Source: a virus (Duplodnaviria > Caudoviricetes). Taken from it: a stretch of 52,802 bases of DNA. The first letter of the stretch is position 1; every line of letters begins with the position of its first letter. Position numbers and translations under genes: made by a program. Shown piece by piece: positions 7,742 to 31,767 of this stretch. Below the pieces are notes generated by a model, which saw nothing but the letters and a program-made list of their open reading frames with translations, searched no databases and was not told where the DNA came from. The DNA is taken from the IMG/VR virus record IMGVR_UViG_3300011114_000970, positions 1 to 52,802 of that record; one strand, given 5' to 3'.

Positions 7742-10700
7742 TGGGTTGGGTAGATAGCGGAGATAGTGCAACGTGGGTAGATGATCCTGCTCCTGAGAGC
7801 AGTGTTACTGTCGAAGCTGCGCCTCCAGATCAAGGCGGGGGTGACATTTTTACTGGTGTACCTCAAATATACGACGTAGATAGAGTTCAAAATATTCCTC
7901 CAGATCAAGGCGGTGGCGTTGACATAAACGCCCTCTATCAACAATACTTAGGTCGTGGCGTTGACCCTTCTGGCGCTGCTACTTATTCTGGCTGGTCACC
8001 ACAAGACATTGCTAGTGATTTAATGAAAAGTCAAGAGTATGCATCGTCTCATGGCGCACTTCCGACGAACACCCCTCAAGACGTTAATTCTATTTATCAA
8101 TCACTTTTAGGTCGTGGTGTTGATCCCAGTGGAGCTGCCACTTATGCTGGCTGGGAACCATCAAATATTTGGAACAACATTTTGCAGAGTCAAGAATACA
8201 CTTCGACTCATAATAATCCTATGTTGTCTATGGCTGGAGTCTATCCTAGAGGTGCGCTTCCTAGTATTGATTACACGACAACTTATAATTACGCTCCTGA
8301 TTGGCTAAGTCCTCAAGATTACGCAGCTTCTGGTTTTGATAATCAGGGCAGAAGTGTAGCTAGCATCGTTCCCACTGCTAATTTAAATGCGCCAGAAGGT
8401 GGTCCAAGATTAAATGAATATGGTCGTTTAGATCAATATAACGGTCAAGAAGGAACTGCTACTCAAGGTTATCAAGTTGCTCAAGGTGGTCGGTGGCATG
8501 AAACAGTTGACATGGAAGGCAATCCAAAAATAACTTGGGTTCCATCAACCTTTGATTTAAGCGGTGGAAAACAAGTTAGTGATGATCCAAGTAAGCAAGG
8601 TAGCCCGACGTTTCAAGGTGGCACACGCATGCCTGACGGCACGATTGTTCATTATGACGCAATGACGGATTCTGTAACAGTAGAAGCACCTCTGTCTTCT
8701 TACTCTACAAAAGCTGATGATCAAAGGTTAGGTTATAGAGAACAGCGTTATACGGGTGCTAGTAATTTCGGCGACACGACAAAATTTCAAGGTCAAGACG
8801 TTAGCACTAGCAAGGGTGAATTCCTTGTTGATAAAGAAACAGGCAGGCTTTTTGTTGATAAGAACAACGACCCAATACCTGTTTATCGTAAACCTAGAGA
8901 TCCTGGGTTTGATGATTGGTTAACAGAAAATGGTTGGATGACTATTCCAATGTTGGCTGCAATTGCCTTGAGTGCTGGTAGTGCTACCCCACTTGTTGCT
9001 GGTGAAGTTGGCGCAGCTGGCGCAGCTGGCGCTGGCATAGCTGAAGGTGGAGTAGCAGCGTCAACAGCAGCTTCTACGACTTTTGCTGCTGAAACAGCCG
9101 CCGCTGCCAATGCCGCCGCCGCCGCTGCTAATCCTTTAAGCCCATCGACACTGTTGCCTTATTCAACAACGGGTAGTCAGTTAACAACAGGTTCAAGCCT
9201 AATACCAACCACAGTTGCTCCTTGGTATAGCACAACAATTCCTGCTTTAGACGCAGTCCTTGCAGGGGCTGCTAAGGGTGCTGTCATAGGTGCAGGGACG
9301 TCATATCTAACAAAAGGTGACCCTGTCAAAGGTGCGGTTTACGGCGCTTTGTCAGGAGGTGTAGGGGCAGGGGGCGCTGATTTAGCAGCGAATTATATAT
9401 CGCCTAGTGCTTGGGTTACTGGAGCTGCTGGTGGAGCTGCCGCCGCCGCCGCCAATGCTGCTGTTCGTGGTGGAGACAATATATTAAGAAATACAGCGAT
9501 CGGCGCAATCACTGGCGCAACTTTGCCTGTTGTTACTGATCTAGCAATCTCAGTTATTGGTTCTGATAATCCGCTTGCAGTTGATATTTTCTCTCGTGGA
9601 ATTCTTTCAGCAGGTAGAGCATTAGCTACAGGTGGCGACCCGTTACAAGCTCTCACTTATAGTTCAGTAGCAACAGTGCTTGGGTCTAATTTCAATCCCA
9701 GCACAGGCACTATAACTGACGCATTTGGAAAAGTAGTTTCCGACAACAATATAACTAATAGTCCGCAATATGCTCAATTATCTAGCGATTTGGGTGGCAA
9801 TAATGCAGCTAATGCTTGGATTGATACGCAACTAACAAGCATAACTCAAGACCAAAACTCTTTAACTACTGCAATGGATAACAGTAGCGTTTTAAACAAT
9901 GTTGCTAATAACACTAGTGCTTTTACTCAAGCAGACAACAAGCCAAATATATTTGACATAGTGTTACCTAGTATTAGCCCTGCAGGACTTGAATTTCCTT
10001 CACCAGAAGATTTATCAGGAATGTTTGCTAAAACAGCTGATCAAATGGCTGCAGGAGATACGCTTTATTCTAAAATAAATCCAGATAGCTATGTAATCAA
10101 AAATGAAGACGGAAGCTTAACTGCAGTAGGTCCAAGTGGCGAAAAAATGGCTGTTTCACAAGACCAAGCTAATGATCTTGTTAAAGCAATGAATGATGCA
10201 AATAATTCAATCACAACGGATGATTGGACTGATAAAACAAAAAGCCAAGCTCAAGGTGCTTTATTTTCAGGTGATGCTAAACCAATGCAAGTTCCAAATA
10301 ATTGGCAAGGCTGGACAGGCGATCAACCTTCTGCGTCTGTATTGTCGGACAATTATGAAGGTATGATGCAAAATGTCCAACAAGACGTCACTCAGAAGTT
10401 TATTGATGATTACAAAGATAAACCTACATTAGGTCTTGAAACTGTTAAATCTTCTCCAGAAGATATTCAAAGAATAAATGAGGAAATTCAAAACGAGCAA
10501 AGACAAGATGCGTCAAATTTAAACCAAGCTGGTCAAATGAGTCAGCCAACTGAGAATGAAGAGGCTTTAGCTATTAGCAACAATCCTTTAGTTTTGGCTA
10601 ACGCTACTCCAGAACAAGAAGAAAGAATTAACGAATTAAAAGACATCATTACTTCTCCAAACACAACCCCAGAGCAAAAAGATCAAGCTGCCAAAGAATT

Positions 10701-11751
10701 AACCTCTCTTTCTATCGGAATTGCTACACAAGGTGCAGACGATGGGACAAATCAAGGCGATAAAGACGGGTATAAGTTTGGAAAAGGAACTCAGCCTGGA
10801 ACTGGTGGGGGTTTATATGGCGATGAAGGGAATCCTGGGTTAGATAAAGTTGATATGGCTTCTTTAGAAGATCCTTTTGATGAGCCCATTGAAGAACCCA
10901 TTGAAGAACCAATTGAAGAACCAATTGAAGAACCAATTGACGAGCCTCCTCCTGAAGATCCTGAAGATCCTGAAGACCCTGAAGATCCAACAAAGACTAC
11001 TACTCCGCCAACTAAAACACCTGTTAAGCCGCCATTACCTGTTATCAAGAAACCTGTAATTCAAGCTGAAAGCCAAATACCAGGATATAGCTGGAACGAA
11101 ACTATTACAGGCGCTTTACCTCACAGTTTACAAGCAACATTTTTAGCTGGTGCGCCAGTGACCGAAGGAAGAAATATGCCATCTCAACTTAGACAACTCT
11201 ACCCACAGCTTGCCAATATTGACCCTCGACTATTGCAAATTCTCAGTGGGAAATCAACTCCCTCCAATTTAGGTGGCGATTATGGCAGCACTGACCTGAG
11301 TGCAACAGCGCAAGGTGGTAGACCTTCTGCAGGATACCCAGCTCAAGCTGCAGCGGAATCCTCTGCTGCAAAATTTGCATCGCCTAATCTTCCAGCGAGT
11401 TATAATTCGCTTTATGCAGCGGGTCTTTCTTCTTTAGGTGGCGCTTCTAATCCTTATGGCCTAAAAGAAGGAGGCACACCTCATAGACCTGAGTTTATAA
11501 CAGGCAAAACAGGTCATTTTGTAGAAGGACGTGGAGATGGTCAATCGGACGATATACCTGCTATGTTAGCTGACGGAGAATATGTATTTGACGCAGATAC
11601 TGTTGCTTCCTTAGGGAATGGTTCTTCTAAGGCAGGCGCTGCAGCGTTGGACAAGATGCGTGAGAGCATACGTCAACATAAGCGTTCAGCGCCACACAAT
11701 AAAATTCCTCCCAAGGCTAAATCGCCTTTAGAATATATGAAAGGTCGATAA
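7741..11751 (+). CDS. Large ejection/internal virion protein with two DUF4214-like repeats
   Basis: 1336 aa; two LYxxxLGRGVDPSG...SQEY repeats; Gly/Ala hydrophobic segment; C-terminal GDGQSDDIPAMLADGEYVFDADTV domain. Confidence 0.7.
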   Translation: MGWVDSGDSATWVDDPAPESSVTVEAAPPDQGGGDIFTGVPQIYDVDRVQNIPPDQGGGVDINALYQQYLGRGVDPSGAATYSGWSPQDIASDLMKSQEYASSHGALPTNTPQDVNSIYQSLLGRGVDPSGAATYAGWEPSNIWNNILQSQEYTSTHNNPMLSMAGVYPRGALPSIDYTTTYNYAPDWLSPQDYAASGFDNQGRSVASIVPTANLNAPEGGPRLNEYGRLDQYNGQEGTATQGYQVAQGGRWHETVDMEGNPKITWVPSTFDLSGGKQVSDDPSKQGSPTFQGGTRMPDGTIVHYDAMTDSVTVEAPLSSYSTKADDQRLGYREQRYTGASNFGDTTKFQGQDVSTSKGEFLVDKETGRLFVDKNNDPIPVYRKPRDPGFDDWLTENGWMTIPMLAAIALSAGSATPLVAGEVGAAGAAGAGIAEGGVAASTAASTTFAAETAAAANAAAAAANPLSPSTLLPYSTTGSQLTTGSSLIPTTVAPWYSTTIPALDAVLAGAAKGAVIGAGTSYLTKGDPVKGAVYGALSGGVGAGGADLAANYISPSAWVTGAAGGAAAAAANAAVRGGDNILRNTAIGAITGATLPVVTDLAISVIGSDNPLAVDIFSRGILSAGRALATGGDPLQALTYSSVATVLGSNFNPSTGTITDAFGKVVSDNNITNSPQYAQLSSDLGGNNAANAWIDTQLTSITQDQNSLTTAMDNSSVLNNVANNTSAFTQADNKPNIFDIVLPSISPAGLEFPSPEDLSGMFAKTADQMAAGDTLYSKINPDSYVIKNEDGSLTAVGPSGEKMAVSQDQANDLVKAMNDANNSITTDDWTDKTKSQAQGALFSGDAKPMQVPNNWQGWTGDQPSASVLSDNYEGMMQNVQQDVTQKFIDDYKDKPTLGLETVKSSPEDIQRINEEIQNEQRQDASNLNQAGQMSQPTENEEALAISNNPLVLANATPEQEERINELKDIITSPNTTPEQKDQAAKELTSLSIGIATQGADDGTNQGDKDGYKFGKGTQPGTGGGLYGDEGNPGLDKVDMASLEDPFDEPIEEPIEEPIEEPIEEPIDEPPPEDPEDPEDPEDPTKTTTPPTKTPVKPPLPVIKKPVIQAESQIPGYSWNETITGALPHSLQATFLAGAPVTEGRNMPSQLRQLYPQLANIDPRLLQILSGKSTPSNLGGDYGSTDLSATAQGGRPSAGYPAQAAAESSAAKFASPNLPASYNSLYAAGLSSLGGASNPYGLKEGGTPHRPEFITGKTGHFVEGRGDGQSDDIPAMLADGEYVFDADTVASLGNGSSKAGAAALDKMRESIRQHKRSAPHNKIPPKAKSPLEYMKGR
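10879..10989 (+). repeat. Coding tandem repeats (12-bp CCMATTGAAGAA and 9-bp CCTGAAGAY units)
   Basis: Encodes DEPIEEPIEEPIEEPIEEPIDEPPPEDPEDPEDPEDP. Confidence 0.9.
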
Positions 11752-11753
11752 TC

Positions 11754-12758
11754 ATGGCACTGTCTCAAGGTTCACCATTACCAAATATAACAACTACTCA
11801 GCAGCAGCAGACACAAGCTCCGAGTTGGTACACTGATTATTTAAATAATTTAGCGCAAACAGGTACACAAGCAGGTGCAGGTGCGCAATATGTTGGCGCT
11901 ACAGGTTTGCAAAATCAAGCGTTTAATCAAACGCAACAGAATGTTGGCAATTATCAACCAAGCCTAACAGCTGCGACTAACTTAGCGAATACTGCTGGCA
12001 ACACGAACGTAGCAAGCTCAGTTAATCAGTTTATGAACCCCTACACGCAAAATGTCGTTGATGCTTTGGGTGTTACAGGTCGTCGGAATATTGATCAGTA
12101 TTTAGCTCCTGGGGCGACTTCAGCTGCTGTTGGTTCTGGACAATTTGGTTCAAAGCGTGGAGCTGAAGTGCTTGGCCAAGCGATGAATACAGGTTTACAG
12201 AATTTAAATTTAGCACAATCCCAAGCGCTTCAAACTGGCTATGGGCAATCACTACAAGCAGCGCAGAACCAAGTCTCAAATCAATTAGCAGCGAGTGGTC
12301 AGCTTGGCTCTTTAGCAGGGCAACAGCAACAGTATGGATTGGGCGATGTTAATGCACTTTCAACACTGGGCGCTCAACAGCAACAAATTAGTCAAAATGA
12401 ATCTTTATTCCCCTTACAAACTGCAGCTCAACAAGCAGCGATATTGAGAGGCTATACAATCCCGACTTCTGTGGCTTCTAGTTATACAGGTCCAATTCCT
12501 GGTGCGTACAGCGCTTCTCCTTTACAGCAAATTGCAGGTTTAGGTTCACTGCTAGGTGCATTGAATCAATCTCCTGCTGGAGGTGGAAAAACACCTTCTG
12601 AAAATTTCGCCAGCTTGGTCGGAACAGGATATGACAAAATTAAAAATATATTTTCGAACCCATCTCAAGAAAATGACTACGTACCTATTGACCTTTCAAC
12701 AGGTGCTGAAGGAAATACTTCACTGCCTCCTTGGTGGTGGAATGACTCTTATGATTAA
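11754..12758 (+). CDS. Ejection (pilot-type) protein
   Basis: Q/A/G-rich; FMNPYTQNVV, GQFGSKRG, SPLQQIAGLG motifs. Confidence 0.7.
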   Translation: MALSQGSPLPNITTTQQQQTQAPSWYTDYLNNLAQTGTQAGAGAQYVGATGLQNQAFNQTQQNVGNYQPSLTAATNLANTAGNTNVASSVNQFMNPYTQNVVDALGVTGRRNIDQYLAPGATSAAVGSGQFGSKRGAEVLGQAMNTGLQNLNLAQSQALQTGYGQSLQAAQNQVSNQLAASGQLGSLAGQQQQYGLGDVNALSTLGAQQQQISQNESLFPLQTAAQQAAILRGYTIPTSVASSYTGPIPGAYSASPLQQIAGLGSLLGALNQSPAGGGKTPSENFASLVGTGYDKIKNIFSNPSQENDYVPIDLSTGAEGNTSLPPWWWNDSYD

Positions 12759-12767
12759 GGAATAGTT

Positions 12768-14393
12768 ATGGCACTTCCAATGGCAACAACTCCTCCTCAG
12801 GGATTAGGCATGGACGAAACAGGTCGTCAAGAGTATTTTGACGCTCTGAATAAAACATTGCAAGCGCTTGAAGCAAGGGGCAATGGTAATATTAATTTAT
12901 GGAATGTAGCTGGACAATTTTTCAACCCAGGACGAACAGGGCAATTCAGTGAAGCATTGGGAAACGTAGCTAGCTCAGTAGGCAAAGACATGGAGCGTCA
13001 GCAAGAAGCTGCTATTCCGCTTGCACAAATGCGTGCGACAATTGCTGGGCAGAAATATACAGTTGGAAACGAGACAAAAGCATTAGCATTACTAGCCAAT
13101 GCACTCGACACAACTCCTCAGCAAGCTGGTCAAACTATTGCTTCAGGAGAAATGACTCCTGATATGATTAGCAAAATACCTTCTGGACTTTATGTTTATT
13201 TAAATAAACTCGATCCAAAGCTGGGAGAAGGAATTAAAAATGCATTCACTATGGACGTTGAGCGTCGTAAGCTAGTTAATGAAGATATCAAAAATGGTTT
13301 GAGTGTAACCGACCTCACTGCCAAATATGGCAGAGGAGTTGAGCAATATTTACCAAGTCAATTGCAGAAGAAACCTTCTGCTCCTAGTGCGTCTTCTGAA
13401 ATTCTTGCACCTAAAGATCTTGCTGCGCAAATTGAAACAGATTTTGGAATTAAACTAGGACCAGCAGCATTAACAAGAACAGAAGCTCAACAAAAAGATT
13501 TAGTAGACCGAGCAGCCGCAGGCGAACAAGGAATTTATAAACCTGCGCCTGTTTTAAAAGGTAAAGAGACTTATCATGAAGGTGCAATAGATGTTCCTCG
13601 TACAGTTCCTGAGTCGTATTTGAATGCTCGAGGGTATTATCGCCCAGACAAAAATGATCCTGTTCACGCTGTGCCAATGCCTGCAAGGAAAGCAGAACCA
13701 AGTCCAGCAACAGCCAGCGAACAGGGCTTACCATTAGCAGTTCAAGCAGACGTACAAAAAGAAAGAGCAAAAGCTCAAGACGAGACTTTTAAAACTCAGA
13801 GAACTGAACTTTTTTCTTACACTCCGCAAATGACGGTGAAATCAAATCAACAATTAAAAGAGTTACATGATATTGCTGATAAATATCCTCGTATTTATGG
13901 ATTGATGCAACAACAAGGTACATTAGCAGCCATTCAAGCTGCGGCGCAAGAGGGAGTAACTGCAGGAAGGTTCGGTAATATTAGTTTACCAGTGCAAACA
14001 TTCTTAGAAAAAGTCAAGCTGGCTCCAGAAGAGCAAAGAGTCCTACGTAGAGCGGCGCAGCTTATGGCTGAGCAATTCTTTGAAACAGCAAAAGCAGAAA
14101 AATCAGCCTTGGGTCCACAGATCTCCAATGCAGATGCGCAATTTATGCAACGTCCACTCGTCACAGAAGCAGATGCAGCTTCTACAGTTAAATACTGGTC
14201 AGAGCAACGCATGGTGCTAAATCATCAAAGAGGAGAAATATTTAAATCAGCCACTCAATTCGATAAAAAATATGGCACATCATTACCAGCTGGGCGTTAT
14301 TTTGATTCACCTGACTATTTAAGTATTGTGAAAAAATACGACGATCTACAGACTCAATTGCGTGCTCGTCATCCTGACTTCGGAGCAAAATGA
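12768..14393 (+). CDS. Ejection protein with a putative M15-type peptidoglycan peptidase domain
   Basis: RTEAQQKDL...YHEGAIDV...DPVH resembles the zinc-ligand pattern of M15 peptidases. Confidence 0.6.
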   Translation: MALPMATTPPQGLGMDETGRQEYFDALNKTLQALEARGNGNINLWNVAGQFFNPGRTGQFSEALGNVASSVGKDMERQQEAAIPLAQMRATIAGQKYTVGNETKALALLANALDTTPQQAGQTIASGEMTPDMISKIPSGLYVYLNKLDPKLGEGIKNAFTMDVERRKLVNEDIKNGLSVTDLTAKYGRGVEQYLPSQLQKKPSAPSASSEILAPKDLAAQIETDFGIKLGPAALTRTEAQQKDLVDRAAAGEQGIYKPAPVLKGKETYHEGAIDVPRTVPESYLNARGYYRPDKNDPVHAVPMPARKAEPSPATASEQGLPLAVQADVQKERAKAQDETFKTQRTELFSYTPQMTVKSNQQLKELHDIADKYPRIYGLMQQQGTLAAIQAAAQEGVTAGRFGNISLPVQTFLEKVKLAPEEQRVLRRAAQLMAEQFFETAKAEKSALGPQISNADAQFMQRPLVTEADAASTVKYWSEQRMVLNHQRGEIFKSATQFDKKYGTSLPAGRYFDSPDYLSIVKKYDDLQTQLRARHPDFGAK

Positions 14394-15553
14394 TGAGCGA
14401 GTTAGACGAAATTCTCGGTAAAAAAGCGCCTGAAGTAAAACCCGTTTCAAAAAGCGAATTCAAACTGGAAGATCTAGACCCTCTTTTTGAAAAACCAATG
14501 GAACCTCCTGCAGAAAAAGAATCTAAACTAATCTCTGCAGAAATGCCTTCTAATGTTGTACCAGCTGCAGCTGTGGGCGCTGCGACAGGATATGTAGCTG
14601 GGAAGTTTATTCCTTCTATAGAAACAAAAGCACCTGCAAATGTAGCGAACAGAACCATAGAAGCAGAGGTGGCTAAAAAAGCTGCAGAGCGTCAAGTTGC
14701 TAATCTAAGTCAAGCAAAAACAGGACACGCAACCAATATTGACTCTGCTTTTCAAGAGCTAAATGTTTTAAAAGCAAAGGCTGATGAAGCCGCTCAAAGA
14801 CTAGCAGCTGTGCGTGAGAGAGCGATGGGTCTGGGTGCAATCCCTGAACCAAAACCTATCGTCCCAACTACAGCTGTTGGAAGTTCTGAAGTTCCTGGAT
14901 CTCTTTCTCAAGGTTCACTCCGTCACTCTGAAAAGATGGGTGAGATAACAGAAGCTAATAAAGTTCGTAAAGGAATTGCAGGTACTGCAAAGGGATTACC
15001 CTTAGAACAACGGATGCCATTGACAGGATTTTCTCAGAATAGCAGAGTTATAGTGCCTGACTATTTAGCACAGGCGCCAATTTATACACAAGAACAATTA
15101 GCAGTGCAAAGAGAATTACAGCAAGCTCAAACTATGTTTGAAAATGCGCAAAAACAAGCAACAGGTGCGCAGGCAAAATGGCAGGGGTTAACAAAATCAG
15201 TCCCAAGGGGAGTAACAACAGCGGAAGTAGGTGCGACACGTGCTACAGAAAAAGCAATGACTGCTGCTGACCGCTTGGCTGAATTGCAAAAATTAAAACC
15301 AAGCATGGTTTCTAAGATGGGCTCGGCTATTAGTAGAATCCCAGGACTTAATATTTTTGCAGGAGGATTAACCGCAGCTGAAGCAATGAATGCCTATGAA
15401 CAAGGATTAACCACAGAAGGTGTTATGTCTGGGCTGGGCGCAACAGGTGGAGCGCTTATGATGGCACCACATCCCGCTGCAAAATTAGTGGGGGGTGCAC
15501 TTTCAATACCCCCACTCGTTTATCAAGGTTATAAAGCATTGAGTAAAGAGTAA
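14390..15553 (+). CDS. Probable ejection protein (coiled coil, hydrophobic C-terminus)
   Basis: Last gene of the late operon; Ala-rich helices; Gly-rich hydrophobic C-terminus. Confidence 0.55.
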   Translation: MMSELDEILGKKAPEVKPVSKSEFKLEDLDPLFEKPMEPPAEKESKLISAEMPSNVVPAAAVGAATGYVAGKFIPSIETKAPANVANRTIEAEVAKKAAERQVANLSQAKTGHATNIDSAFQELNVLKAKADEAAQRLAAVRERAMGLGAIPEPKPIVPTTAVGSSEVPGSLSQGSLRHSEKMGEITEANKVRKGIAGTAKGLPLEQRMPLTGFSQNSRVIVPDYLAQAPIYTQEQLAVQRELQQAQTMFENAQKQATGAQAKWQGLTKSVPRGVTTAEVGATRATEKAMTAADRLAELQKLKPSMVSKMGSAISRIPGLNIFAGGLTAAEAMNAYEQGLTTEGVMSGLGATGGALMMAPHPAAKLVGGALSIPPLVYQGYKALSKE

Positions 15554-15569: not shown

Positions 15570-15728
15570 TCAATTTACTCCCACTTCGGTGGGAGCTTTT
15601 TTTGAAGTCATCAGTGCAATGGTCCAAGCTTCTAACCAAATGCTGTAAGGGTCTTTCAAAAGATCTTCATTCCCCGTGTGTTTTAGCAACTCGATCCAAT
15701 CATCATATTCTTGTTTTGGGTCAATCAT
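15570..15728 (-). CDS. Small hypothetical protein (52 aa)
   Basis: MIDPKQEYDDWIELLKHTGNEDLLKDPYSIWLEAW..., start overlaps the polymerase stop; below track cutoff. Confidence 0.55.
   Translation of the reverse strand: MIDPKQEYDDWIELLKHTGNEDLLKDPYSIWLEAWTIALMTSKKAPTEVGVN
15578..15603 (+). terminator. Intrinsic terminator of the late operon
   Basis: CTCCCAC-TTCG-GTGGGAG followed by CTTTTTTT, where the two arms converge. Confidence 0.9.
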
Positions 15729-18447
15729 TTCCAATTACCTTCCATTTTTCAATTTGCATCATTCTTATTCCGTTCCCACCCATTTTCCCTCTTGCGAGGA
15801 TTATAGCGCCAATCGGGACAGATTCTAATATTTCTTTGCCCATTCTTTCGTAATCTTTTCTACGGATTGTAAGAATTGCAAGACCTGTATCGTCTTTTAC
15901 CGTGATGTTAAGCCAATAACGAAATTTACGATCAAAATCAGTTATGACTCCTCCACGTTTCATAACATTACCTGTTTCAAGAGCGTCTCGTAAATTCTTT
16001 TCAGTCATAATTCCAATAACGACTCGTTCAGACGAGTCGGCTTCTAAATCATTACACTTAGTTAACTCCCAGCCTTCTTTGAGACCGTGCTTGCGAGGGT
16101 TTGCATACCAATCTCCAAAGCGAGCTGTGAAAGGATACGGATCTGGCCATTTCAGTTTTGGGTTTTCCATTTTGGAGGTTATACTTGGTGGCAGAACCTT
16201 TCCTGTTACCCGAGAGTCAAGCACCTTCTGCGCCATCTTGGGTCCAATCCCATGCACAGCGATCAATCCACCGTAAATTGCATCACCTTTAGCTGCCCAA
16301 CTGGCTTCAGATTTGTCTTTGTCGAATGCGACGTATTTGAAACCTTCAGCAGTGATTTCTCGAAGCAGTTTCAAAACAGCGTCATCATCAGAAGTATGAC
16401 GCAAAGCGGCTGCGCAAAATTCCAATGGATGGTGATGTTTTAACCAAGCTGTCCAAGCAGAAATAACAGAATATGCCGCTGCATGAGCTTTTACGAATGC
16501 GTATGAGCCTGCATGCATCATTGAATTCCAAACTTCTAAAGCTACTTCTTTTTTGATATCTTGCTGTTCTGCGCCTGCTAAAAATTTATCACGGAATTGG
16601 TCGAAATATTCTTTACCCAAAGACTTTGACATTGCTCTTCTTAGAGCTGTTAATTCTGGCCAGCCTAATTTCCCCATATCTCTTCCAAGGAACAAAATCT
16701 GCTCTTGGTAAACAACAACACCTTCTGTTTGCTCTGTCCATTTTTTATGAATCTCATGATAATAGCTCGGGATCTCTTTGCCGTTACGTACTTCGAGGAA
16801 TTTCTTAGCGCCGCCAGATTGTAATGGTCCAGGACGAGCCAATGAAGTTAAGGCAACGATATCGTTGAAATTCTTGACTTCAAATTGCCTGAGCAATTGC
16901 CTAGCTGCGTCTCCTTCAATTTGAAAAACTCCTGTAATCTTTTGACTGTTCAGCAGCGAATAAACTTCTGGTGCGTGGATGTCGATATCTGTTATCTTTT
17001 TGCCGACTTTGTCTAAGGTCTCTTGCACAATGTCCAGTGTTTTTAGACCCAATGCATCCAGCTTCATCAAATTCAAAGACTCAGCTTGATATTTGTCTAT
17101 CTGTCCAATGCCTTCTGCAGTGACGGAACAGTAGTCTGCTACAGGCGTATTGCAGATGATAACACCAGCAGCGTGTACGCCAGCGTGCGAAGCATGCCCT
17201 TCTAGTGCGCCTGAATTACGGAATCCAGGATGTTTTTCTAATAATTCACGTCCCGCCTTCAATGCTTCCATTGTATCAGTCAAACAAAATGCAGCTCGAG
17301 AATCTCCCGAAGATCGCTCAATCATATTGTCACGAATTTCTGCAGTCTCCCAAACAGGAATTTTCATACGCTTTCCGACTGTTGCCAAGATTGACCTAGG
17401 CTTTAAACGATTCACATTTCCTAGCCTTGCAATACTTTCTGCTCCGTATTTCCCTTTTAGATATTCAAACAATTCGTCTCGGCGATCTCCAGGAAAATCC
17501 ATGTCAATGTCAGGCAAATCGATTCTGGTTATATCTACGAATCGTTCAAACAGCAATCCGTATTCAATCGGGTCAAGTTCAGTTATCCCGAGCAAATAAC
17601 ATATGATTGACCCTGAAGATGAACCTCGTCCAGGACCAACGAGCATACGTTCACGAGCCCAACGAATTAAATCATAAACCATTAAGAAATAAGATTCAAA
17701 CTTCTTTTCTCTGATTACGCCTAATTCACGTTGCAATCGAGCTTCGTATTCCTCACCGAAACCCTTTGGAAAACGCCAGCTGATCCCTTTCCTTGCTTCT
17801 GCTTCTAGATCGCCTTCTACGACCATATTTTCAGCTACAGGAAGCTTTATTGGCTCGAATCGCTCTGCAATTTCTTCCCAAGAGACAGAAAGTGGGTGAA
17901 TTTCATTTATTTCCCGCTGCGACCACCAATGCTGCGAGTGTGCACCCAACCGCACTCCGAGCAATTCTGCATACTTGCGGTCTGTCGGAGCAGGATATCG
18001 CACATCGGAAACAAAGAAAAGTGGTAATTTCTTTTTATATGCCCACGCTTTATTAATCTCATTTTTCAATGGATTTAAAGGCGATAAATCGATTACCATA
18101 TCTGCAGCTTGAATTCTGCTTATATCAGCTGTGTGGGGGAATACCAAAAGATTATCAGAAAATTCAGTATCATAACTAATTCCCGCACTGTGGCGATATA
18201 ATTCTCTAACCCCCTCTTGGTTCTTTGCTAACACTTTGCAGGATCGTTCTTCATCTTTTATTAATAACTCTGCACCGAGGATGGGTTGCAATCCTGCCTT
18301 TTCTGCAGCTTTGAAAAAAGGCACATGCCCCCAAGTTCCTGTGTCACAAATGGCTGGTTGTGTATAGCCTAAATCTATGGCTCGTTTTATGACTTTGTCA
18401 ATTGGACCAAAACAATTACCGAATGAAAATTCTGACCTAGTGAGCAT
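15721..18447 (-). CDS. dnaE: DNA polymerase III alpha subunit-like (family C) polymerase
   Basis: GPGRGSSSGS, LLFERF, PDIDMDF, HAAGVII, KLDALGL, RPGPL, VYQEQ, YAFVKAHAAAY; start may be 18447 or 18468. Confidence 0.95.
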   Translation of the reverse strand: MLTRSEFSFGNCFGPIDKVIKRAIDLGYTQPAICDTGTWGHVPFFKAAEKAGLQPILGAELLIKDEERSCKVLAKNQEGVRELYRHSAGISYDTEFSDNLLVFPHTADISRIQAADMVIDLSPLNPLKNEINKAWAYKKKLPLFFVSDVRYPAPTDRKYAELLGVRLGAHSQHWWSQREINEIHPLSVSWEEIAERFEPIKLPVAENMVVEGDLEAEARKGISWRFPKGFGEEYEARLQRELGVIREKKFESYFLMVYDLIRWARERMLVGPGRGSSSGSIICYLLGITELDPIEYGLLFERFVDITRIDLPDIDMDFPGDRRDELFEYLKGKYGAESIARLGNVNRLKPRSILATVGKRMKIPVWETAEIRDNMIERSSGDSRAAFCLTDTMEALKAGRELLEKHPGFRNSGALEGHASHAGVHAAGVIICNTPVADYCSVTAEGIGQIDKYQAESLNLMKLDALGLKTLDIVQETLDKVGKKITDIDIHAPEVYSLLNSQKITGVFQIEGDAARQLLRQFEVKNFNDIVALTSLARPGPLQSGGAKKFLEVRNGKEIPSYYHEIHKKWTEQTEGVVVYQEQILFLGRDMGKLGWPELTALRRAMSKSLGKEYFDQFRDKFLAGAEQQDIKKEVALEVWNSMMHAGSYAFVKAHAAAYSVISAWTAWLKHHHPLEFCAAALRHTSDDDAVLKLLREITAEGFKYVAFDKDKSEASWAAKGDAIYGGLIAVHGIGPKMAQKVLDSRVTGKVLPPSITSKMENPKLKWPDPYPFTARFGDWYANPRKHGLKEGWELTKCNDLEADSSERVVIGIMTEKNLRDALETGNVMKRGGVITDFDRKFRYWLNITVKDDTGLAILTIRRKDYERMGKEILESVPIGAIILARGKMGGNGIRMMQIEKWKVIGND

Positions 18448-18964
18448 CGAGCGCCTTATAGCATTCAAACAGAGCTTTTACGTCGTCCAATGCCCTGTGA
18501 GTCTGAGCGAGTGGTTTTCCCTGAGTGTGTTCATAAAGTTCTGTTAATTTCATGCGCCTACCTTTTATGTGCATCGTTGAATCGACGGTACATATCTGAT
18601 TCGGAGGGAAAGGGAATCTCCTCTCCCATCCGCAGCGGAGTAATTCAAAATAGAGTACATCTCTATCGAATGCTAAATTATGCGCTATTAAAGTGTTTGC
18701 ACCTAAAAAGAATTCAGCTAACTCAGGAATTATTTCTTCTATATGACGTTTACCTTTTAACTGCTCTGGCTTTATACCTGTAATTTTTGTTATTTCCGCA
18801 GAAATTTCTTGCTTTGGATCGATCAGCTCACTCAGCTCTGCAACAACATTCATTGACTCCGTTACCTTTATAGCACCGATTTCAATAATTTTTGGTTGCA
18901 GCTCTAAGTCAGAAGAGCTGGGCAGTGTTAAGCCTGTTGTTTCAAAGTCAAGGAGAATTATCAT
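18437..18964 (-). CDS. DnaQ-like DEDDh 3'-5' exonuclease
   Basis: DFETTG (Exo I), HNLAFD (Exo II), HRALDD (Exo III). Confidence 0.92.
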   Translation of the reverse strand: MIILLDFETTGLTLPSSSDLELQPKIIEIGAIKVTESMNVVAELSELIDPKQEISAEITKITGIKPEQLKGKRHIEEIIPELAEFFLGANTLIAHNLAFDRDVLYFELLRCGWERRFPFPPNQICTVDSTMHIKGRRMKLTELYEHTQGKPLAQTHRALDDVKALFECYKALDAH

Positions 18965-19241
18965 TAGTCAGCTCTTCAAGCATAGCGGCATAAACGGAAA
19001 GGTCGTGAGCAGAATCTCTATGACCGCCATGATCTAAATTCTCTGCGTAGCGCATTATCTTGCTAACGCACTGGACAAGAATCCCAAAACGATTATGCGA
19101 TTCAAAAGAATCTAACTCTAACCCTTTGGGGAACATTGCAGCCATAACTTTTCCATACTTTTTGTAATTATCTCCGTAAAGTTTATTACGTTGCTCATAG
19201 GTGTCAGCGCAATCACGTAACAATTCTGGAACAGTTTTCAT
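18948..19241 (-). CDS. DUF6378-like all-alpha protein, possible nucleotide pyrophosphohydrolase
   Basis: RNKLYGD, KIMRY, HRDSAHDLSVYAA pattern. Confidence 0.6.
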   Translation of the reverse strand: MKTVPELLRDCADTYEQRNKLYGDNYKKYGKVMAAMFPKGLELDSFESHNRFGILVQCVSKIMRYAENLDHGGHRDSAHDLSVYAAMLEELTNDNSP

Positions 19242-19660
19242 ACTAAAACTCCCTTAACTCCTAGTTCACGATACATCTCAACGATGTCTTGGCGATCGTC
19301 ATATGCTTTTTCAATTTCAAACATTTGTAGTTTTAGCATTTTGATTACATCTCTTTTTAATTCAACAGAGTGGCGATGGTCGTCGTTACCACGCATGATA
19401 AGGACTTTGTAATCGAAGCAATTATCATGCAGCCAGGATTTTGTTTTCTTTCTCATGTATTCTGGTCTGGCTGTAAGGAAAAATACATCAACAGGAGATT
19501 CGTCAACAATATGACGATTTATAACCAAATCACCACCACAATGCAAATGATACTCGTGGTATTTATGATCACCATCTGCAGCTTGAGGATCGATCATCCA
19601 ATGACGCCAGTCATCTTGACTTATGGTGTTGTCTAAATCAACAATACGGATTGTTCTCAT
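19238..19660 (-). CDS. HAD-family phosphatase (PNKP phosphatase-like)
   Basis: DLDNT motif I, LTARP motif II, Lys, AYDD motif IV. Confidence 0.85.
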   Translation of the reverse strand: MRTIRIVDLDNTISQDDWRHWMIDPQAADGDHKYHEYHLHCGGDLVINRHIVDESPVDVFFLTARPEYMRKKTKSWLHDNCFDYKVLIMRGNDDHRHSVELKRDVIKMLKLQMFEIEKAYDDRQDIVEMYRELGVKGVLV

Positions 19661-20397
19661 TATGATTTCCTTATCAAGTCAATAGCCTTTGCAATTTCCC
19701 ACCCCAAACCCTTGCCAGTGGTTATCCCGATTTCTTTTGCAGCTTTTTCTAACATCTCAATGGCAACGTCAATATCGGATTCAAAGAATGGTGCAGTCCA
19801 TGGCCAAACTGCAAGTATAAGTCGTTCCATTTCTCGAACGATTTCTCCATATTCTCCCTGTGCACGTAGCGACTTGCGTGCTTTGATTAGGTCGGTAACG
19901 GAACGGAAATTATATTTACAGATAATATTGCATTCTGTGTTCAAAGGCATAATCCCACGAGCGTCTTCGAGTGCTACGCCAGAATCAACTAGCTCTCTAT
20001 AAAAACTCCTAGCTGTATTAGCAGCATCGCGATAGATATCCAGCTGAACTGTATTCATTTTCCTGCCCTCGACAACAGCCAATTCAGACGCATCCGTTAC
20101 ACGCATCGATTGCATTGCGTAAGAAGCAGTCCTAGTTCTTGTTATTTGCTGCGCTACAGCTCGACTAATTCCACTGAGCAGGAAGGTCACGTCGACAAAC
20201 TCCCACGAGCTCTTGATTGTTTTAGCCATGTAGTCTAGCTCTGCTTTTTTCTTCTCTGGAGACCAGCTTTGTATTTCTTCCATCAATCCAGCAGAAAGAT
20301 TCAAACGAGTCTGTTTTGTAAAGATCATAACATCTGCAGCGTGCCAGACTTGGTCAGGTCTGCCAAGACCTGTATAATTCATTAATTCAATTTCCAT
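19660..20397 (-). CDS. thyX: ThyX-family flavin-dependent thymidylate synthase-like protein with atypical motifs
   Basis: ISRAVAQQITRTRTASYAMQSMR, EDARGIMP, NFRS...R....AQGE. Confidence 0.8.
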   Translation of the reverse strand: MEIELMNYTGLGRPDQVWHAADVMIFTKQTRLNLSAGLMEEIQSWSPEKKKAELDYMAKTIKSSWEFVDVTFLLSGISRAVAQQITRTRTASYAMQSMRVTDASELAVVEGRKMNTVQLDIYRDAANTARSFYRELVDSGVALEDARGIMPLNTECNIICKYNFRSVTDLIKARKSLRAQGEYGEIVREMERLILAVWPWTAPFFESDIDVAIEMLEKAAKEIGITTGKGLGWEIAKAIDLIRKS

Positions 20398-20549
20398 GGT
20401 GGTACTCCTTCAGTAATAATTCTTTTTTCTAAAACTGCTATAACTTGTAGCAGCTCTTCTTTGGTTATATCTTCTCTTAAAACATACGACTTAATTACTT
20501 CTAACGTGAACTTAACACCTTCATCGAATGCTTCGACTAAAGGACTCAT
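20382..20549 (-). CDS. Small hypothetical protein (55 aa)
   Basis: MSPLVEAFDEGVKFTLEVIKSY..., overlaps both neighbours and fills the gap. Confidence 0.55.
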   Translation of the reverse strand: MSPLVEAFDEGVKFTLEVIKSYVLREDITKEELLQVIAVLEKRIITEGVPPWKLN

Positions 20550-21451
20550 TTTAGGCTTTCTAATTTACGAGTGTATGAATCTGCATTAACTAAACGCTTA
20601 ATTACATTAAGATCGTGCAGCACATCGTCCAAAAGAATGTTGCGCCAAGTAGCAAATCTTCCTAAAGAATAAATTTGATGATTGTGCGACAGTATTTCTA
20701 CAATATGCCTTCTTGAAGATTCATCAATAGGAGAAATTTTACCATAGGACTGTTTATGAGTGACGTCAATTACAGAAACGTCATCATAAGTTAGCCCAAA
20801 GGAAAATAAAATTTCATCCAAATCAGCTTCTCCATACAAAGGATCTTCCACTGATTCCATAATAAGCAAGTCGCCAGTTATAGAAGCACGATAAACAGGA
20901 GTTAGTGGAGAGGGGTAGTAAATCGTTTGAAAAACATCTGCATTTTTAACTCTGAATCGTTGCACTCGAATAGGGGAAAATTTAAATTGCAGCTTGTCCA
21001 TTCCCGTGATGCCGCTAAGAGTGATCATCTTGTTCATGGGGATGGTACTTATGATCGGACGATCTAAAGGTAATTCTTTAACAGGAGAGTCCCAGTGCAC
21101 TCGATGACCGACTTGGCTTATCAATTGTAAAAGAAAATCTTCTGGGGCAATATATCGATCAACTGCTTCTATATTCCAAATCGACCGATCGAAATATCCA
21201 CCTGTAACTTTGTAAGAATATAAATTAGACATCTGAATATTAGGCTGGTGAAACGCTCCTTCCATCCAGATGTTTTTATAAACTCGAATCTTGCGGAAAG
21301 GAACACCAACAGCGTCCCCAACAGCAGAAGAGCGGAAGCGCAAAACAGCTCTGTGGGACTGAGCGTCCCGAGAGGCTGCTTCGAATACTGACGCTTGCGG
21401 ATTAACTGCAGCAGCAATTAGCCCTGAGAGACCAGCGCCAAGTATAATCAT
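20546..21451 (-). CDS. FAD-dependent oxidoreductase (Rossmann fold; UDP-galactopyranose mutase/amine-oxidase superfamily-like)
   Basis: MIILGAGLSGL...VFEA dinucleotide-binding motif, IISTIP, C-terminal LGRFATW; ATGA overlap with the upstream gene. Confidence 0.75.
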   Translation of the reverse strand: MIILGAGLSGLIAAAVNPQASVFEAASRDAQSHRAVLRFRSSAVGDAVGVPFRKIRVYKNIWMEGAFHQPNIQMSNLYSYKVTGGYFDRSIWNIEAVDRYIAPEDFLLQLISQVGHRVHWDSPVKELPLDRPIISTIPMNKMITLSGITGMDKLQFKFSPIRVQRFRVKNADVFQTIYYPSPLTPVYRASITGDLLIMESVEDPLYGEADLDEILFSFGLTYDDVSVIDVTHKQSYGKISPIDESSRRHIVEILSHNHQIYSLGRFATWRNILLDDVLHDLNVIKRLVNADSYTRKLESLK

Positions 21452-22185
21452 ACGAATGCCTCTGCAATTTCCCACAGCTTCATATTGACCTTGATCGTGT
21501 TGTCCATAGCACGAATGCCGTGCGTACGAGTGGCTCGACCATTACGTGATCGACCGACTACGCCACCTTTGATCATGTTTTCTTGAACCCGATTAAAAAC
21601 ACGCCAAAGATCTTCACCTTTGTCCTCGTCTCTACGAGCTTCGAGTAAAGAATTAGGCATAACACGACCACCCCAAAAAGCAGAGGCTAAAACAGAGAAT
21701 TGAGTGATTTGCGAGGCAGTTAAAATCCGTTTCTTAAACAGTTCAACTCGACGAGCTGCTTCTTGAGCTGCTTTGATAACTTTATTTGCTTCTTCAATAA
21801 CTCTCTCTGCAGTAACGTCAATATGGCGAATGCGCACAGAATCAATCTCGTGCGACTTAACGATCAATCCGTTAGAACAGATCATACGGAACATACCTGC
21901 TTCCATACGTAAAGACGAGCTGCCGTCGTTGGCGTTAATCAAAAGAATTTCAGGCACAGATCCATTGATTTCTTTTAGGTAAGATTCGTGACGCATACGT
22001 ACAAAATGCCGCACAACACGAGGATCACGCTTACGTGGCTTTAGCTGATTTGCTTGCGTAACACGGAAACCTTCCTCACGCATTAGCTCGACAACAGCTC
22101 CTGTGCTGATTAGGTCATATTTAGCAGACAATTTTTCGTATTTAATTCCGTCAATAGCTGCTTCGGGGAGTAATAATTCAGTCAT
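21448..22185 (-). CDS. DUF932-family protein
   Basis: HFVRMR, PEILLINANDGSSS, AGMFRMICSNGL, DLWRVFNRVQEN. Confidence 0.88.
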   Translation of the reverse strand: MTELLLPEAAIDGIKYEKLSAKYDLISTGAVVELMREEGFRVTQANQLKPRKRDPRVVRHFVRMRHESYLKEINGSVPEILLINANDGSSSLRMEAGMFRMICSNGLIVKSHEIDSVRIRHIDVTAERVIEEANKVIKAAQEAARRVELFKKRILTASQITQFSVLASAFWGGRVMPNSLLEARRDEDKGEDLWRVFNRVQENMIKGGVVGRSRNGRATRTHGIRAMDNTIKVNMKLWEIAEAFV

Positions 22186-23424: not shown

Positions 23425-23940
23425 TTAGATTTCAGCTAACTCATTGTTTTTATTGGTAATTTTTATCCAATCAGGGCATCCTACAGTACAACGATCCCAT
23501 TTCATCCAGGTATTTTCGTCGGTTTTCTTCTGATAATACTGGCGATAGGCAATAACAGCATCGGGATTCTTGCATTCATCAGGCATAGCCTGAGCAAATG
23601 GGGTCGGGGCTGCGAATAAAAGCGCAGGTGGGGGAGAAACAAGCTCGCCTGTAAAAAACCCATGGCAAGCGTGAAATTTGTCGTATCGTATTTTATATTC
23701 ACGAGCTAATGCTTGCCCTAACGACACTAACCAGAGATAATTCGTTCTTGAAGCAGCTGCCCAGACAACACAAGGGTGTTTTTCATGAGTCGGTTTATAA
23801 GTAACAGCTGCACCGTTACCGTGAATGTGGTGAACTGTAGCTAAAATTTGCGCAGTTTCGAGCACCATTTTTACGACGTGTTTGTCGCTATGAGCCTTGG
23901 CTGCCATGATTGGTATGTGGTGAAGTATAAATATGTTCAT
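23425..23940 (-). CDS. Pyrimidine-dimer DNA glycosylase (endonuclease V/DenV-like family)
   Basis: MNIF...DKHVVKMVLETAQIL...YKPTHEKHPCVVWA...NYLWL...AYRQYY. Confidence 0.75.
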   Translation of the reverse strand: MNIFILHHIPIMAAKAHSDKHVVKMVLETAQILATVHHIHGNGAAVTYKPTHEKHPCVVWAAASRTNYLWLVSLGQALAREYKIRYDKFHACHGFFTGELVSPPPALLFAAPTPFAQAMPDECKNPDAVIAYRQYYQKKTDENTWMKWDRCTVGCPDWIKITNKNNELAEI

Positions 23941-23976
23941 CTGTTTTTCCTGTTTGTTCGGTTGACTACGAAAGAA

Positions 23977-24005
23977 ATTATGCAACAAAAATTCGCAAAA
24001 GAAAA
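23977..24005 (-). promoter_or_regulatory. Second early promoter, paralogous to 23366-23394
   Basis: TTTTCT-17 nt-CATAAT, sharing the upstream AATATGAA.AAAGTTGTT block. Confidence 0.6.
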
Positions 24006-24041
24006 CAACTTTTTTCATATTTTTTGTAAATCTTTGTTTCT

Positions 24042-24503
24042 ATGAGAGAATCTGCGCTTTGGGCGTCCCTAAAAAGCTCAGGTCAACTCCCTTTTTCAGT
24101 CAGAGTGGAGTCACCTGCTTCTCCTGGACTGCCTGATGTTTATTTTGCATTGGGCAACGGCATAACGGGTTGGATTGAATTAAAAGTCGTACCTGATTCG
24201 CACAAAAAAATAATAACCCAAGGAACAGGTGTTGGGCAGCTCAGACCGCTACAGGTTTTATGGGCGCAACAAGCCAGCGAAAAAAATATTTTTACCTGCG
24301 TGTTGCTTTTTGCGCAAAAGCGAGGCATACTTGTCTCAGGTCGAGATGTAAAGGCATTATTGTCTGCACCGCTCGAGCAAGTCTTAACAAAAGCATTGTG
24401 GATTGGCAGCATTAGTCCACGCAAGCGTTGGGACGGATTACTGGAGAAACTGGATAAACATGGAACAATTGAAACTATTCAAATGGCAACAAACTGCACT
24501 TGA
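24042..24503 (+). CDS. PD-(D/E)XK nuclease (VRR-NUC/Holliday junction resolvase-like)
   Basis: MRES..W, GLPDVYF, WIELK, LRPLQVLW. Confidence 0.8.
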   Translation: MRESALWASLKSSGQLPFSVRVESPASPGLPDVYFALGNGITGWIELKVVPDSHKKIITQGTGVGQLRPLQVLWAQQASEKNIFTCVLLFAQKRGILVSGRDVKALLSAPLEQVLTKALWIGSISPRKRWDGLLEKLDKHGTIETIQMATNCT

Positions 24504-25752
24504 TCGCTCTGTCAATGAGGCTTCTTATGGGCTTTTTGCTGATCCTGGAACAGGTAAAACATACGCAGCGCTAACCATCGCAAAGCATTGGACAAACGCA
24601 GCCATAGTCATCTGTCCGCTTTCTGTGAAGGAACAATGGCACAAGGAAGCAAAGACAGTAAAAATTCCTGTTGTTGTGTTCCACTACGAGCAATTGCGCC
24701 AAAAGAAATTTTTCGACGTCATTTCCACAACACTCAAGAGTAACGAAATAACGTTAATCCTTGACGAAAGTCATCGTATAAAGAGTCCTAGTGCTTTAAC
24801 AACTAAAGCAGCGCTGAAACTTTCTTTCTTAGCGAGCCATAAGTTAGCGCTAACAGGAACACCAACAGCAAACAGTCCTGCCGATTTATATACGCAATTG
24901 AAATTCCTCAAGCCAGAAAAGAAAATGGAAACGTATCGTGACTTCCAAAGTGAATACATAGAAGCATTGCCATTCAACCATCCACTCATGAAACGTATAG
25001 CTGGTAGACCTTTCATCCCTCGCAAAGATAAAAATGGTCGTATGGTTCTGAAGAATATAGAAAATCTAAAAGCTCGTATAACGAGCTACGGATGCACGGT
25101 GAAACTCAATGAGGTGGTGGAGTTACCTGAACGTAGTTTCGTGCAGAAATATTGCGAGCCAAGCAAAGAATTATTAAAAACATATAATGAATTACGTAAG
25201 AATTACACTGCTAAATTTTTAACCAAAGAAGTCACAGCGCAAAATGCCGCCGTGCTTGCTGGTCGTCTTGTCAGACTGACCAGTGGTTATGGGCACGCTG
25301 ACTTTGACGTTTCTTTTCCGAACCCTAAATTGCAAGACCTGCTCGAAGACATAGCCTCTTATGTTGCAGTGGGTAAAGTTATTGTCTGGAGCGTTTGGGT
25401 TGATGAACGCAAAGACGTAATCAAAGAGCTAAAGGAAGCAGGTTACAAGATTGCAATTGAACCCAAAGAATTTATAGAAGGTGACGCACAAATCTTAGTT
25501 GCTTCTCCTAAGATGTTTGGTACTGGCTTAAACTTGCAACTCGCAAAATATCAATTGTGGCTTTCACGCTCGTGGTCATTGCTTGAAAGAGAGCAAGCAT
25601 TAGCGAGGAACTATAGAGCTGGACAAACGGAGAAAACAGTCGTGGTTGATTACCTAACAAAAAATACAATCGACGAGTTTGTGCTCCGTGCATTAGAAAC
25701 AAAAACAGATTTATTAAATCGAATTATGACAACAGGAGCATTTGATGCCTAG
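24460..25752 (+). CDS. SNF2-like superfamily 2 helicase
   Basis: PGTGKT, LDESH, LTGTP, GTGLNLQ, QALARNYRAGQ. Confidence 0.9.
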   Translation: MEQLKLFKWQQTALDRSVNEASYGLFADPGTGKTYAALTIAKHWTNAAIVICPLSVKEQWHKEAKTVKIPVVVFHYEQLRQKKFFDVISTTLKSNEITLILDESHRIKSPSALTTKAALKLSFLASHKLALTGTPTANSPADLYTQLKFLKPEKKMETYRDFQSEYIEALPFNHPLMKRIAGRPFIPRKDKNGRMVLKNIENLKARITSYGCTVKLNEVVELPERSFVQKYCEPSKELLKTYNELRKNYTAKFLTKEVTAQNAAVLAGRLVRLTSGYGHADFDVSFPNPKLQDLLEDIASYVAVGKVIVWSVWVDERKDVIKELKEAGYKIAIEPKEFIEGDAQILVASPKMFGTGLNLQLAKYQLWLSRSWSLLEREQALARNYRAGQTEKTVVVDYLTKNTIDEFVLRALETKTDLLNRIMTTGAFDA

Positions 25753-31675: not shown

Positions 31676-31767
31676 GATGAGGTGTGTGCGGGGTATGGGA
31701 TGTAGGTGAGGCTTTTTATTTTTTTATTTTAGAGAGAGAATTCATATTTGACAAAAAGGAGAAAAAT

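Follow-up and report, generated by a model that had tools for sequence, protein, structure and literature searches.

The DNA examined here is IMG/VR virus record IMGVR_UViG_3300011114_000970, from an uncultivated freshwater phage with an estimated completeness of 94%, and the whole stretch of 52,802 bp is referred to below as the window. On its minus strand, eight genes abut or overlap without gaps from position 22185 to position 15721. They include a gene for a predicted flavoprotein of PHROG family 4828, designated p4828, and one for a divergent ThyX, and the run is assessed here as a candidate pathway for modified thymidine of the kind reported for the Pbunavirus phages F8 and 14-1.

Families were assigned to the genes of the run using Pfam and PHROGs. 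The first gene (21448..22185) encodes a 245 aa DUF932 protein (PF06067, 103.6 bits; phrog_12094). It is followed by p4828 (20546..21451, 301 aa), which includes a Rossmann segment with a GxGxxG motif and has a predicted FAD-binding fold of the UDP-galactopyranose mutase (UGM)/PPO/amine-oxidase type, and by an open reading frame (ORF) of 55 aa (20382..20549) that overlaps both p4828 and the thyX gene and matches no family in either collection. ThyX (19660..20397, 245 aa) is assigned to PF02511 (106.3 bits, E 2e-30) and has the sequence RTRTAS in the position of RHRxxS. The next two genes encode a HAD-superfamily phosphatase of the PNKP-phosphatase type (19238..19660, 140 aa; PF25109, 44.8 bits; phrog_415) and a 97 aa DUF6378-like protein (18948..19241), which scores 19.0 bits against PF19905, below the cut-off of 27.1. 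The run is completed by a DEDDh 3'-5' exonuclease resembling epsilon (18437..18964, 175 aa; PF00929, 90.6 bits; phrog_192) and a DnaE-type family C DNA polymerase (15721..18468, 915 aa; PF07733, 216.5 bits; PF17657, 121.6 bits; PF02811, 47.5 bits; phrog_405, E 2e-215).

The overlaps at the gene junctions are 1-32 nt long, and several consist of ATGA. All seven overlapping or abutting genes listed in a preliminary description of this DNA are present in the order and with the packing given there, and the position at which that description ended the run, 21451, is the ATG of the Rossmann gene. The p4828 ORF was listed as 20546-21475, and the ATG at 21451 is the start used in public gene calls, giving a protein of 301 aa. 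The DUF932 stop codon overlaps this ATG in the same manner as at the other junctions, and with DUF932 the unit has eight genes. No excess of promoter-like or terminator-like sites over shuffled expectation was found within the run, and just beyond dnaE there is a hairpin with a T run (15578-15595). A similar peptide is encoded at the equivalent frame of the 55 aa ORF in two close relatives (L005 and L008).

The distribution of the gene set was assessed in two surveys of IMG/VR, one anchored on p4828 (best 80 of 366 loci) and the other on ThyX (best 80 of at least 570), both of which represent the hits nearest to the window and not the full range of the family. A downstream ThyX gene on the same strand was present in 77 of the 80 p4828-anchored loci, and the three loci where it was missed have less than 2.4 kb of downstream sequence. 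Conversely, p4828 was found upstream in 78 of the 80 ThyX-anchored loci, with a median gap of 46 bp; one of the two misses (L103) has 3 bp of upstream sequence, and the other (L105) has 4.5 kb up to the contig end with no p4828. Where p4828 and DnaE occurred together in the p4828-anchored survey, they were colinear (54/54), and a DUF932 homologue was detected by tblastn upstream of p4828 in 35 of the 80 loci. Among isolate phages, tblastn identified p4828 in 362 of 50,697 records, which comprise phages of Pseudomonas (292 records, PB1-like Pbunavirus), Escherichia (27, Wifcevirus), Serratia (9), Rhizobium (8), Xanthomonas (6) and others. Exactly the same number of isolate records, 362, contained the window ThyX at a query cover of at least 80%, and the counts for the leading genera were identical (Pseudomonas 292, Escherichia 27, Serratia 9 and Xanthomonas 6). 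The search for recurrence of the gene neighbourhood called for by the preliminary description thus revealed near-perfect linkage in hundreds of phages.

The order p4828, ThyX, HAD/DUF6378, exonuclease, DnaE is conserved in Pbunavirus SL1 and F8, Pantoea phage Kyle, Vibrio phage PVA7 and a Ralstonia phage. Apart from one SNF2-type helicase, the ORFs of the window that match F8 by tblastn (E < 1e-4) are confined to those for DnaE, the exonuclease, DUF6378, HAD, ThyX and p4828, and the structural genes of the window phage are unrelated to those of F8. Hence, the cassette is common to phages that are otherwise unrelated. This distribution points to a cassette for nucleotide metabolism and replication that spreads horizontally as a unit.

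The 207 kb genome of the jumbo Rhizobium phage RHph_TM30 encodes p4828, a ThyX with the motif RNR, and a protein with weak HAD and DUF6378 matches. No DnaE match was obtained in the whole RHph_TM30 record, and such an empty answer is weak evidence. The presence of the core without DnaE in this phage suggests that p4828, ThyX and HAD/DUF6378 make up the invariant core and that DnaE is a frequent but not obligatory neighbour. The coupling to a phage-encoded Pol III alpha as a fixed partner, as first proposed for this locus, is therefore not retained. Some public annotations in these genomes look wrong. The 'polysaccharide deacetylase' of RHph_TM30 is a p4828 homologue (39% identity), and the 'phosphoheptose isomerase' genes of RHph_TM30 and PVA7 (L003:9505-10209) both have weak HAD matches, the former with a DUF6378-like C-terminal part and the latter with no DUF6378 match; the misannotated RHph_TM30 genes are located at L089:6581-7540 and L089:12721-13443.

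RHRxxS is the motif of ThyX, and it is also seen in the solved chains aligned in this work. The window protein, in which it is replaced by RTRTAS, is comfortably over the Pfam cut-off for PF02511 (24.8 bits) and barely over that of the NCBI equivalog model TIGR02170 (88.0 versus 87.9, a difference of 0.1 bit). The motif was examined in 80 ThyX hits from 77 IMG/VR loci and three isolate phages, and was RTR in 63, RSR in 14, RNR in one and RHR in one, with one hit truncated. The sequence R[T/S]R is therefore found in 77 of 80 hits, and the atypical RTR form recognised in the preliminary description is a property of the clade as a whole. The sole locus with the RHR motif, L063, is also the sole locus with a radical SAM/SPASM gene in its cassette (L063:3808-4575 and L063:6587-7753).

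Alignment with the solved enzymes of M. tuberculosis, C. glutamicum and T. maritima (T. maritima numbering) revealed that Q75, R78, R80, S88, R90, R147 and R174 are kept in the window clade. The altered positions involve the histidines: that of the 'GH' loop is deleted, EH is replaced by EF, RHR by R[T/S]R, and the histidine of (S/E)H by Arg. The roles of the kept and altered residues follow the general ThyX literature. As judged by this pattern, the histidine-less ThyX proteins form a distinct clade.

For p4828, no sequence match was found in Pfam, NCBIfam or the PDB, and PHROG 4828 has no assigned function. Residues G5, G7, G10 and E24 are invariant among 35 aligned sequences, and the neighbours identified with a language model include amine-oxidase and NAD_binding_8 clusters (score 0.92). 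An AlphaFold model built from the 35 sequences is confident (pLDDT 90.3, pTM 0.84), and its best Foldseek matches are UDP-galactopyranose mutases (E 8e-11, TMq 0.65-0.70), followed by amine oxidase and p-hydroxybenzoate hydroxylase (TMq about 0.52-0.54). An N-terminal beta-alpha-beta GxGxxG segment, an acidic residue ending strand 2 and an overall two-domain fold, all features of GR2-type FAD flavoproteins, are present. Searching 1.8 billion representatives with a profile of the p4828 alignment identified 1120 clusters (50% identity level), of which 1015 had E <= 1e-10; the best 150 of the 1120 were all members of the family, with no bridge to a named family among the matches listed. The p4828 family appears on this basis to be large and discrete.

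Assignment of p4828 as a UGM by sequence was tried and rejected. There is no match to the GLF Pfam family, and hhalign against E. coli Glf and a profile of 18 Glf sequences, which is shallow as these are 69-82% identical, gave probabilities of 2% and 5% with GxGxxG alone aligned. In addition, when the p4828 hidden Markov model was run against 2001 sequences, 2000 of them shuffled copies, E. coli Glf ranked 250 of 1309 reported scores, within the shuffled range. The model accordingly places p4828 as a predicted compact flavoprotein of the UGM/PPO/amine-oxidase fold class that is nearest to UGM and is not a UGM, and the protein would be expected to bind flavin. The initial label of FAD oxidoreductase hence gains support at the level of the fold and none from sequence matches in Pfam, NCBIfam or the PDB. 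A search for longer versions of p4828 carrying a fusion found none, which is weak evidence, and 'p4828' ORFs of 528-574 aa are probably upstream read-through of the ORF routine. A predicted complex of ThyX and p4828 scored 0.00, which is no answer, neither for nor against binding.

The remaining proteins encoded by the run have features consistent with their assignments. The HAD phosphatase, over the PF25109 (HAD_PNKP) cut-off of 27.6 bits, has motif I as DLDNT at residues 8-12, and the HAD and DUF6378 genes are adjacent or fused in most loci. The DUF6378-like protein corresponds to the C-terminal part of the fused phrog_4889, and R18, Y22-G23, K61, R64, H74, D76-S77 and D80 are invariant in its alignment. 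PF19905 was matched by 17 of 18 of its relatives at E <= 0.1, with a best value of 1.4e-5. The exonuclease translation includes the motifs DFETTG, NLAFD and HRALDD, and DnaE carries PHP, Pol3-alpha core and finger domains.

In the relatives, further genes of a tailoring type are embedded in the cassette. A short-chain dehydrogenase (SDR) is encoded in 36 of the 80 p4828-anchored loci, directly after DUF6378 in 35 and after HAD in one, and is also found in Kyle. Two families to which no function is assigned lie in the same place as the SDR, in 30 and 32 loci. Seventeen loci include a Pyr_excise (T4 endonuclease V-like) gene after that for ThyX, between ThyX and HAD. Genes found less often are those for a carbamoyltransferase (4/80; three after p4828, one after DUF6378), a methyltransferase (4/80; three after DUF6378, one after the exonuclease), the radical SAM/SPASM protein of L063 and a class II aldolase (1/80 each, after DUF6378), and an extra pyrophosphatase lies within the cassette in at least two loci. 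Embedded genes of this kind resemble a biosynthetic cluster in which the decoration varies, and plain dTMP supply would not be expected to need them.

Phages that encode the cassette include two with chemically characterised DNA. In a 2025 preprint (PMC12191111), F8 DNA is reported to resist enzymes with TG in their sites, and liquid chromatography-mass spectrometry of F8 and 14-1 virion DNA to reveal novel thymidine-derived nucleosides of 362 u and 390 u that replace about one quarter of the thymidine. The preprint also gives the authors' reading of the adducts as a tetrose sugar-alcohol and a cyclised aldopentose, and states that known modification genes are absent from Pbunaviruses; the responsible genes are not named there. 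A search for the ThyA family (PF00303) found no match in the four records of F8, 14-1, Kyle and RHph_TM30 or in the genome studied here, with the control positive in 10 of 14 genomes. As no ThyA homologue was found, the histidine-less ThyX is the sole gene resembling a thymidylate synthase in phages whose thymidine is known to be modified at C5. A Tet_JBP search of the present genome also gave no match, but its control was silent too and the result is uninformative.

Comparison of F8 with 14-1 revealed 97% protein identity for p4828, 94% for ThyX, 98% for the exonuclease and 96% for DnaE. The fused HAD-DUF6378 proteins are 80% identical with 16 gaps (F8 ORF57, L084:45771-46835), and the small ORFs flanking thyX are 78-82% identical. 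The reported F8 and 14-1 adducts are 28 u apart (PMC12191111). The 14-1 genome includes gp13 (L085:6707-7207), which is annotated as a methyltransferase, has no Pfam match and is absent from F8, and a segment of ORF70 also differs between the two phages. The divergence of HAD-DUF6378 and the presence of gp13 alongside the 28 u difference are suggestive, not decisive. A literature search outside subscription journals and supplements turned up no article in which either the p4828 family or this ThyX clade is given a function, and the extended data tables of the preprint (PMC12191111) could bear on the assignment of the pathway. In the passages covered, a 2026 Pbunavirus preprint merely cites the modification, Korf et al. 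2019 yielded nothing on restriction of Wifcevirus DNA, and a term search of a preprint on T-dioxygenases returned no mention of PB1-like phages.

Taken together, the linkage, the predicted fold, a ThyX that diverges from the solved enzymes, the tailoring genes embedded in the relatives and the lack of ThyA make the cassette the best candidate for producing the modified thymine of F8 and 14-1. We rate at even odds the reading that the p4828/ThyX/HAD-DUF6378 core makes a modified thymidine of the sugar-like adduct kind seen in these two phages. In the pathway envisaged, the ThyX-type enzyme would use flavin chemistry to create or re-create an electrophilic exocyclic methylene at C5 of (d)UMP or dTMP. 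This intermediate, instead of merely being reduced to a methyl group, would be captured with a sugar or sugar phosphate handled by the UGM-like flavoprotein; UGM-type enzymes form sugar adducts at flavin N5. The HAD and DUF6378 pair may then dephosphorylate the adduct or trim the nucleotide pool, lineage-specific tailoring enzymes (the SDR, carbamoyltransferase, methyltransferase, radical SAM and class II aldolase proteins of the relatives) could diversify it, and the adjoining exonuclease and DnaE would replicate the genome and have to tolerate the modified base. Each enzymatic step is put forward as a proposal, and by extension the DNA of the window phage itself may be modified. The broader proposal, that the histidine-less ThyX and a miniature UGM-like flavoprotein constitute a second, flavin-based hypermodification route that builds sugar-derived C5 thymidine adducts without a ThyA-type hydroxymethylase or TET/JBP dioxygenase, on a mobile cassette in over a thousand phage lineages, is tentative, and its chances are placed a little short of even.

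Several observations weigh against synthesis of a modified thymidine by the core. All mappable dUMP-binding residues are retained in the window ThyX, and none of the tailoring families found in the relatives lies inside the run of the window, which is a minimal version of the cassette. p4828 fails every UGM sequence test, and its fold is common to oxidases of quite different chemistry. A partial modification in a TG context fits a step at the DNA level better than replacement in the nucleotide pool, and the dependence on TG implies a sequence-reading step for which there is no obvious candidate among the cassette proteins. No result ties any cassette gene to the F8 and 14-1 adducts, and there are dozens of further Pbunavirus genes to which no function is assigned. 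The public runs that include the window phage are stored as contigs, which are unable to reveal base modification. The earlier suggestion of a non-canonical pyrimidine is therefore kept in part: the gene set recurs, the flavoenzyme fold and the histidine-less ThyX clade are in place, and hypermodified thymidine occurs in F8 and 14-1 without ThyA; a direct link from genes to modification, replacement within the nucleotide pool, an obligatory DnaE and modification of the DNA of this phage are the parts that gained no support.

The main rival is a two-component dTMP supply, in which ThyX would make dTMP only, p4828 would be a dedicated flavin reductase or helper that offsets the lost histidines, HAD and DUF6378 would be housekeeping phosphohydrolases, and the Pbunavirus adducts would arise from unrelated genes. 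The kept dUMP-binding residues, including the substrate-binding arginines, together with scores over the Pfam cut-off and narrowly over that of TIGR02170, indicate that ThyX may simply make dTMP. About three quarters of the F8 thymidine is canonical according to the preprint (PMC12191111), strict pairing of p4828 with the ThyX clade is what would be expected of an obligate helper, and the lack of tailoring genes in the cassette of the window would also agree with dTMP supply. However, the folds closest to p4828 are those of a non-redox mutase and of substrate oxidases, not of known flavin reductases. Dedicated dTMP supply also leaves unexplained the SDR, carbamoyltransferase, methyltransferase, radical SAM and aldolase insertions in the relatives and, ThyA being absent, leaves F8 and 14-1 without a candidate C5 enzyme. 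On balance, we regard it as rather unlikely.

It is improbable that the core serves to deplete or exclude a canonical nucleotide, for example by turnover of dUTP or dTTP by DUF6378 and HAD in counter-defence or pool balancing, with no new base formed. Such a role would suit the pairing of a HAD phosphatase with a small domain of conserved His and Asp residues, adjacent or fused in most loci, and 'nucleotide modification associated domain' is the automatic name of an Atlas cluster neighbouring the DUF6378-like protein (score 0.95). Depletion would not need a flavoprotein strictly paired with ThyX, however, and DUF6378 has no known activity. An action of p4828 on a non-nucleotide substrate, such as a sugar nucleotide or a host envelope precursor, with linkage due merely to co-transcription of early genes, is considered very improbable. 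UGM is the best structural match and some GenBank homologues are annotated as UDP-galactopyranose mutase, whereas the linkage is specific to ThyX at a median of 46 bp across unrelated phages and holds in the jumbo phage that has no DnaE match, p4828 shows no sequence similarity to GLF proteins, and it falls 60-200 residues short of the length of solved UGMs.

Few Pseudomonas phages are used in therapy as often as the PB1-like ones. Hypermodification of F8 and 14-1 DNA was reported as late as 2025 with no genes named, and the present analysis narrows the candidates to four core genes, strictly inherited together in over a thousand protein clusters, whose role can be tested directly. If synthesis of a modified thymidine by this core is confirmed, the pathway would be the first of its kind to be based on ThyX instead of ThyA, and a new use of the UGM fold would be added. 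A flavin-based route would then account for the nucleosides of 362 u and 390 u in F8 and 14-1 and for the insensitivity of Wifcevirus to restriction, and the cassette would predict which uncultivated phages have modified DNA, with consequences for bias in sequencing, for escape from restriction and for sensitivity to modification-dependent nucleases. If dTMP supply is instead the function, a textbook enzyme would nonetheless gain a new form in this obligate two-component ThyX.

Outside the run, the SNF2-type helicase with the tblastn match in F8 is encoded on the plus strand (24403..25752; phrog_62, E 6e-93), and a 197 aa Pyr_excise-like (T4 endonuclease V-like) protein on the minus strand upstream of the run (23425..24018; PF03013, 23.0 bits, exactly at the cut-off; phrog_624, E 2e-50). 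A short segment at 31753-31914 on the plus strand matches a small phrog_4730-like protein (43% over 54 aa); this protein flanks p4828 in 50 of the 80 related loci, and in the window it is about 10 kb away on the opposite strand. For several very large proteins of the structural region, those of 1336 aa and 1383 aa among them, PHROGs gave no match (7741-11751, 11754-15553 and 33832-37983 on the plus strand). The virion module looks novel and unrelated to that of PB1-like phages. In a nucleotide search against isolate phages, the only matches were three short patches in dnaE, so the phage is new at the DNA level. The stretch or part of it is contained in 20 of 24 listed public runs from 10 studies, mainly of water and viral metagenomes. 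Two small runs, X6 and X7, carry a single-organism label and not a metagenome label, and 68% of the sampled words of the cassette are present in them; a close relative of the phage may therefore exist in data from a culture or an isolate.

Of the known systems, the PB1-like module (Pbunavirus F8 ORF65-ORF55, also in Wifcevirus, Kylevirus and Serratia MyoSmar-like phages) is the most similar, with the same genes in the same order at 27-40% amino-acid identity. These phages share no structural genes with the window phage and have genomes of 66-73 kb, as compared with about 53-56 kb here. Moreover, HAD and DUF6378 are two ORFs in the window but fused in the PB1-like module, and the small ORFs between p4828 and thyX differ. 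The solved ThyX enzymes (T. maritima, M. tuberculosis, PBCV-1 and others) belong to the same fold family (clade profile against 3gwc, E 5e-20) and share with the window clade the Gln, Arg and Ser of the motif region and the C-terminal arginines, but their histidines are lost in the window clade, which always pairs with p4828. UDP-galactopyranose mutases (GLF, PF03275), especially the eukaryotic structures 4dsg and 3ukh, are 367-510 aa long as compared with 301 aa for p4828, to which they have no Pfam or profile-profile similarity. The thymidine hypermodification clusters of phages M6, PaMx11, ViI, PhiW-14 and SP10 include a ThyA-type dUMP hydroxymethylase, the 5-HMUDK kinase, aGPT-Pplase and tailoring enzymes, among them an FAD-dependent lyase. 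Flavoenzymes have a precedent in such pathways in PaMx11 gp47, and radical SAM and other tailoring enzymes are also described there (PMC8989533). The C5 substituent of thymidine is the target that these clusters have in common with the pathway proposed for the cassette, but there is no ThyA homologue in the genome studied here, F8 or 14-1, and the candidate synthase instead has the ThyX fold.

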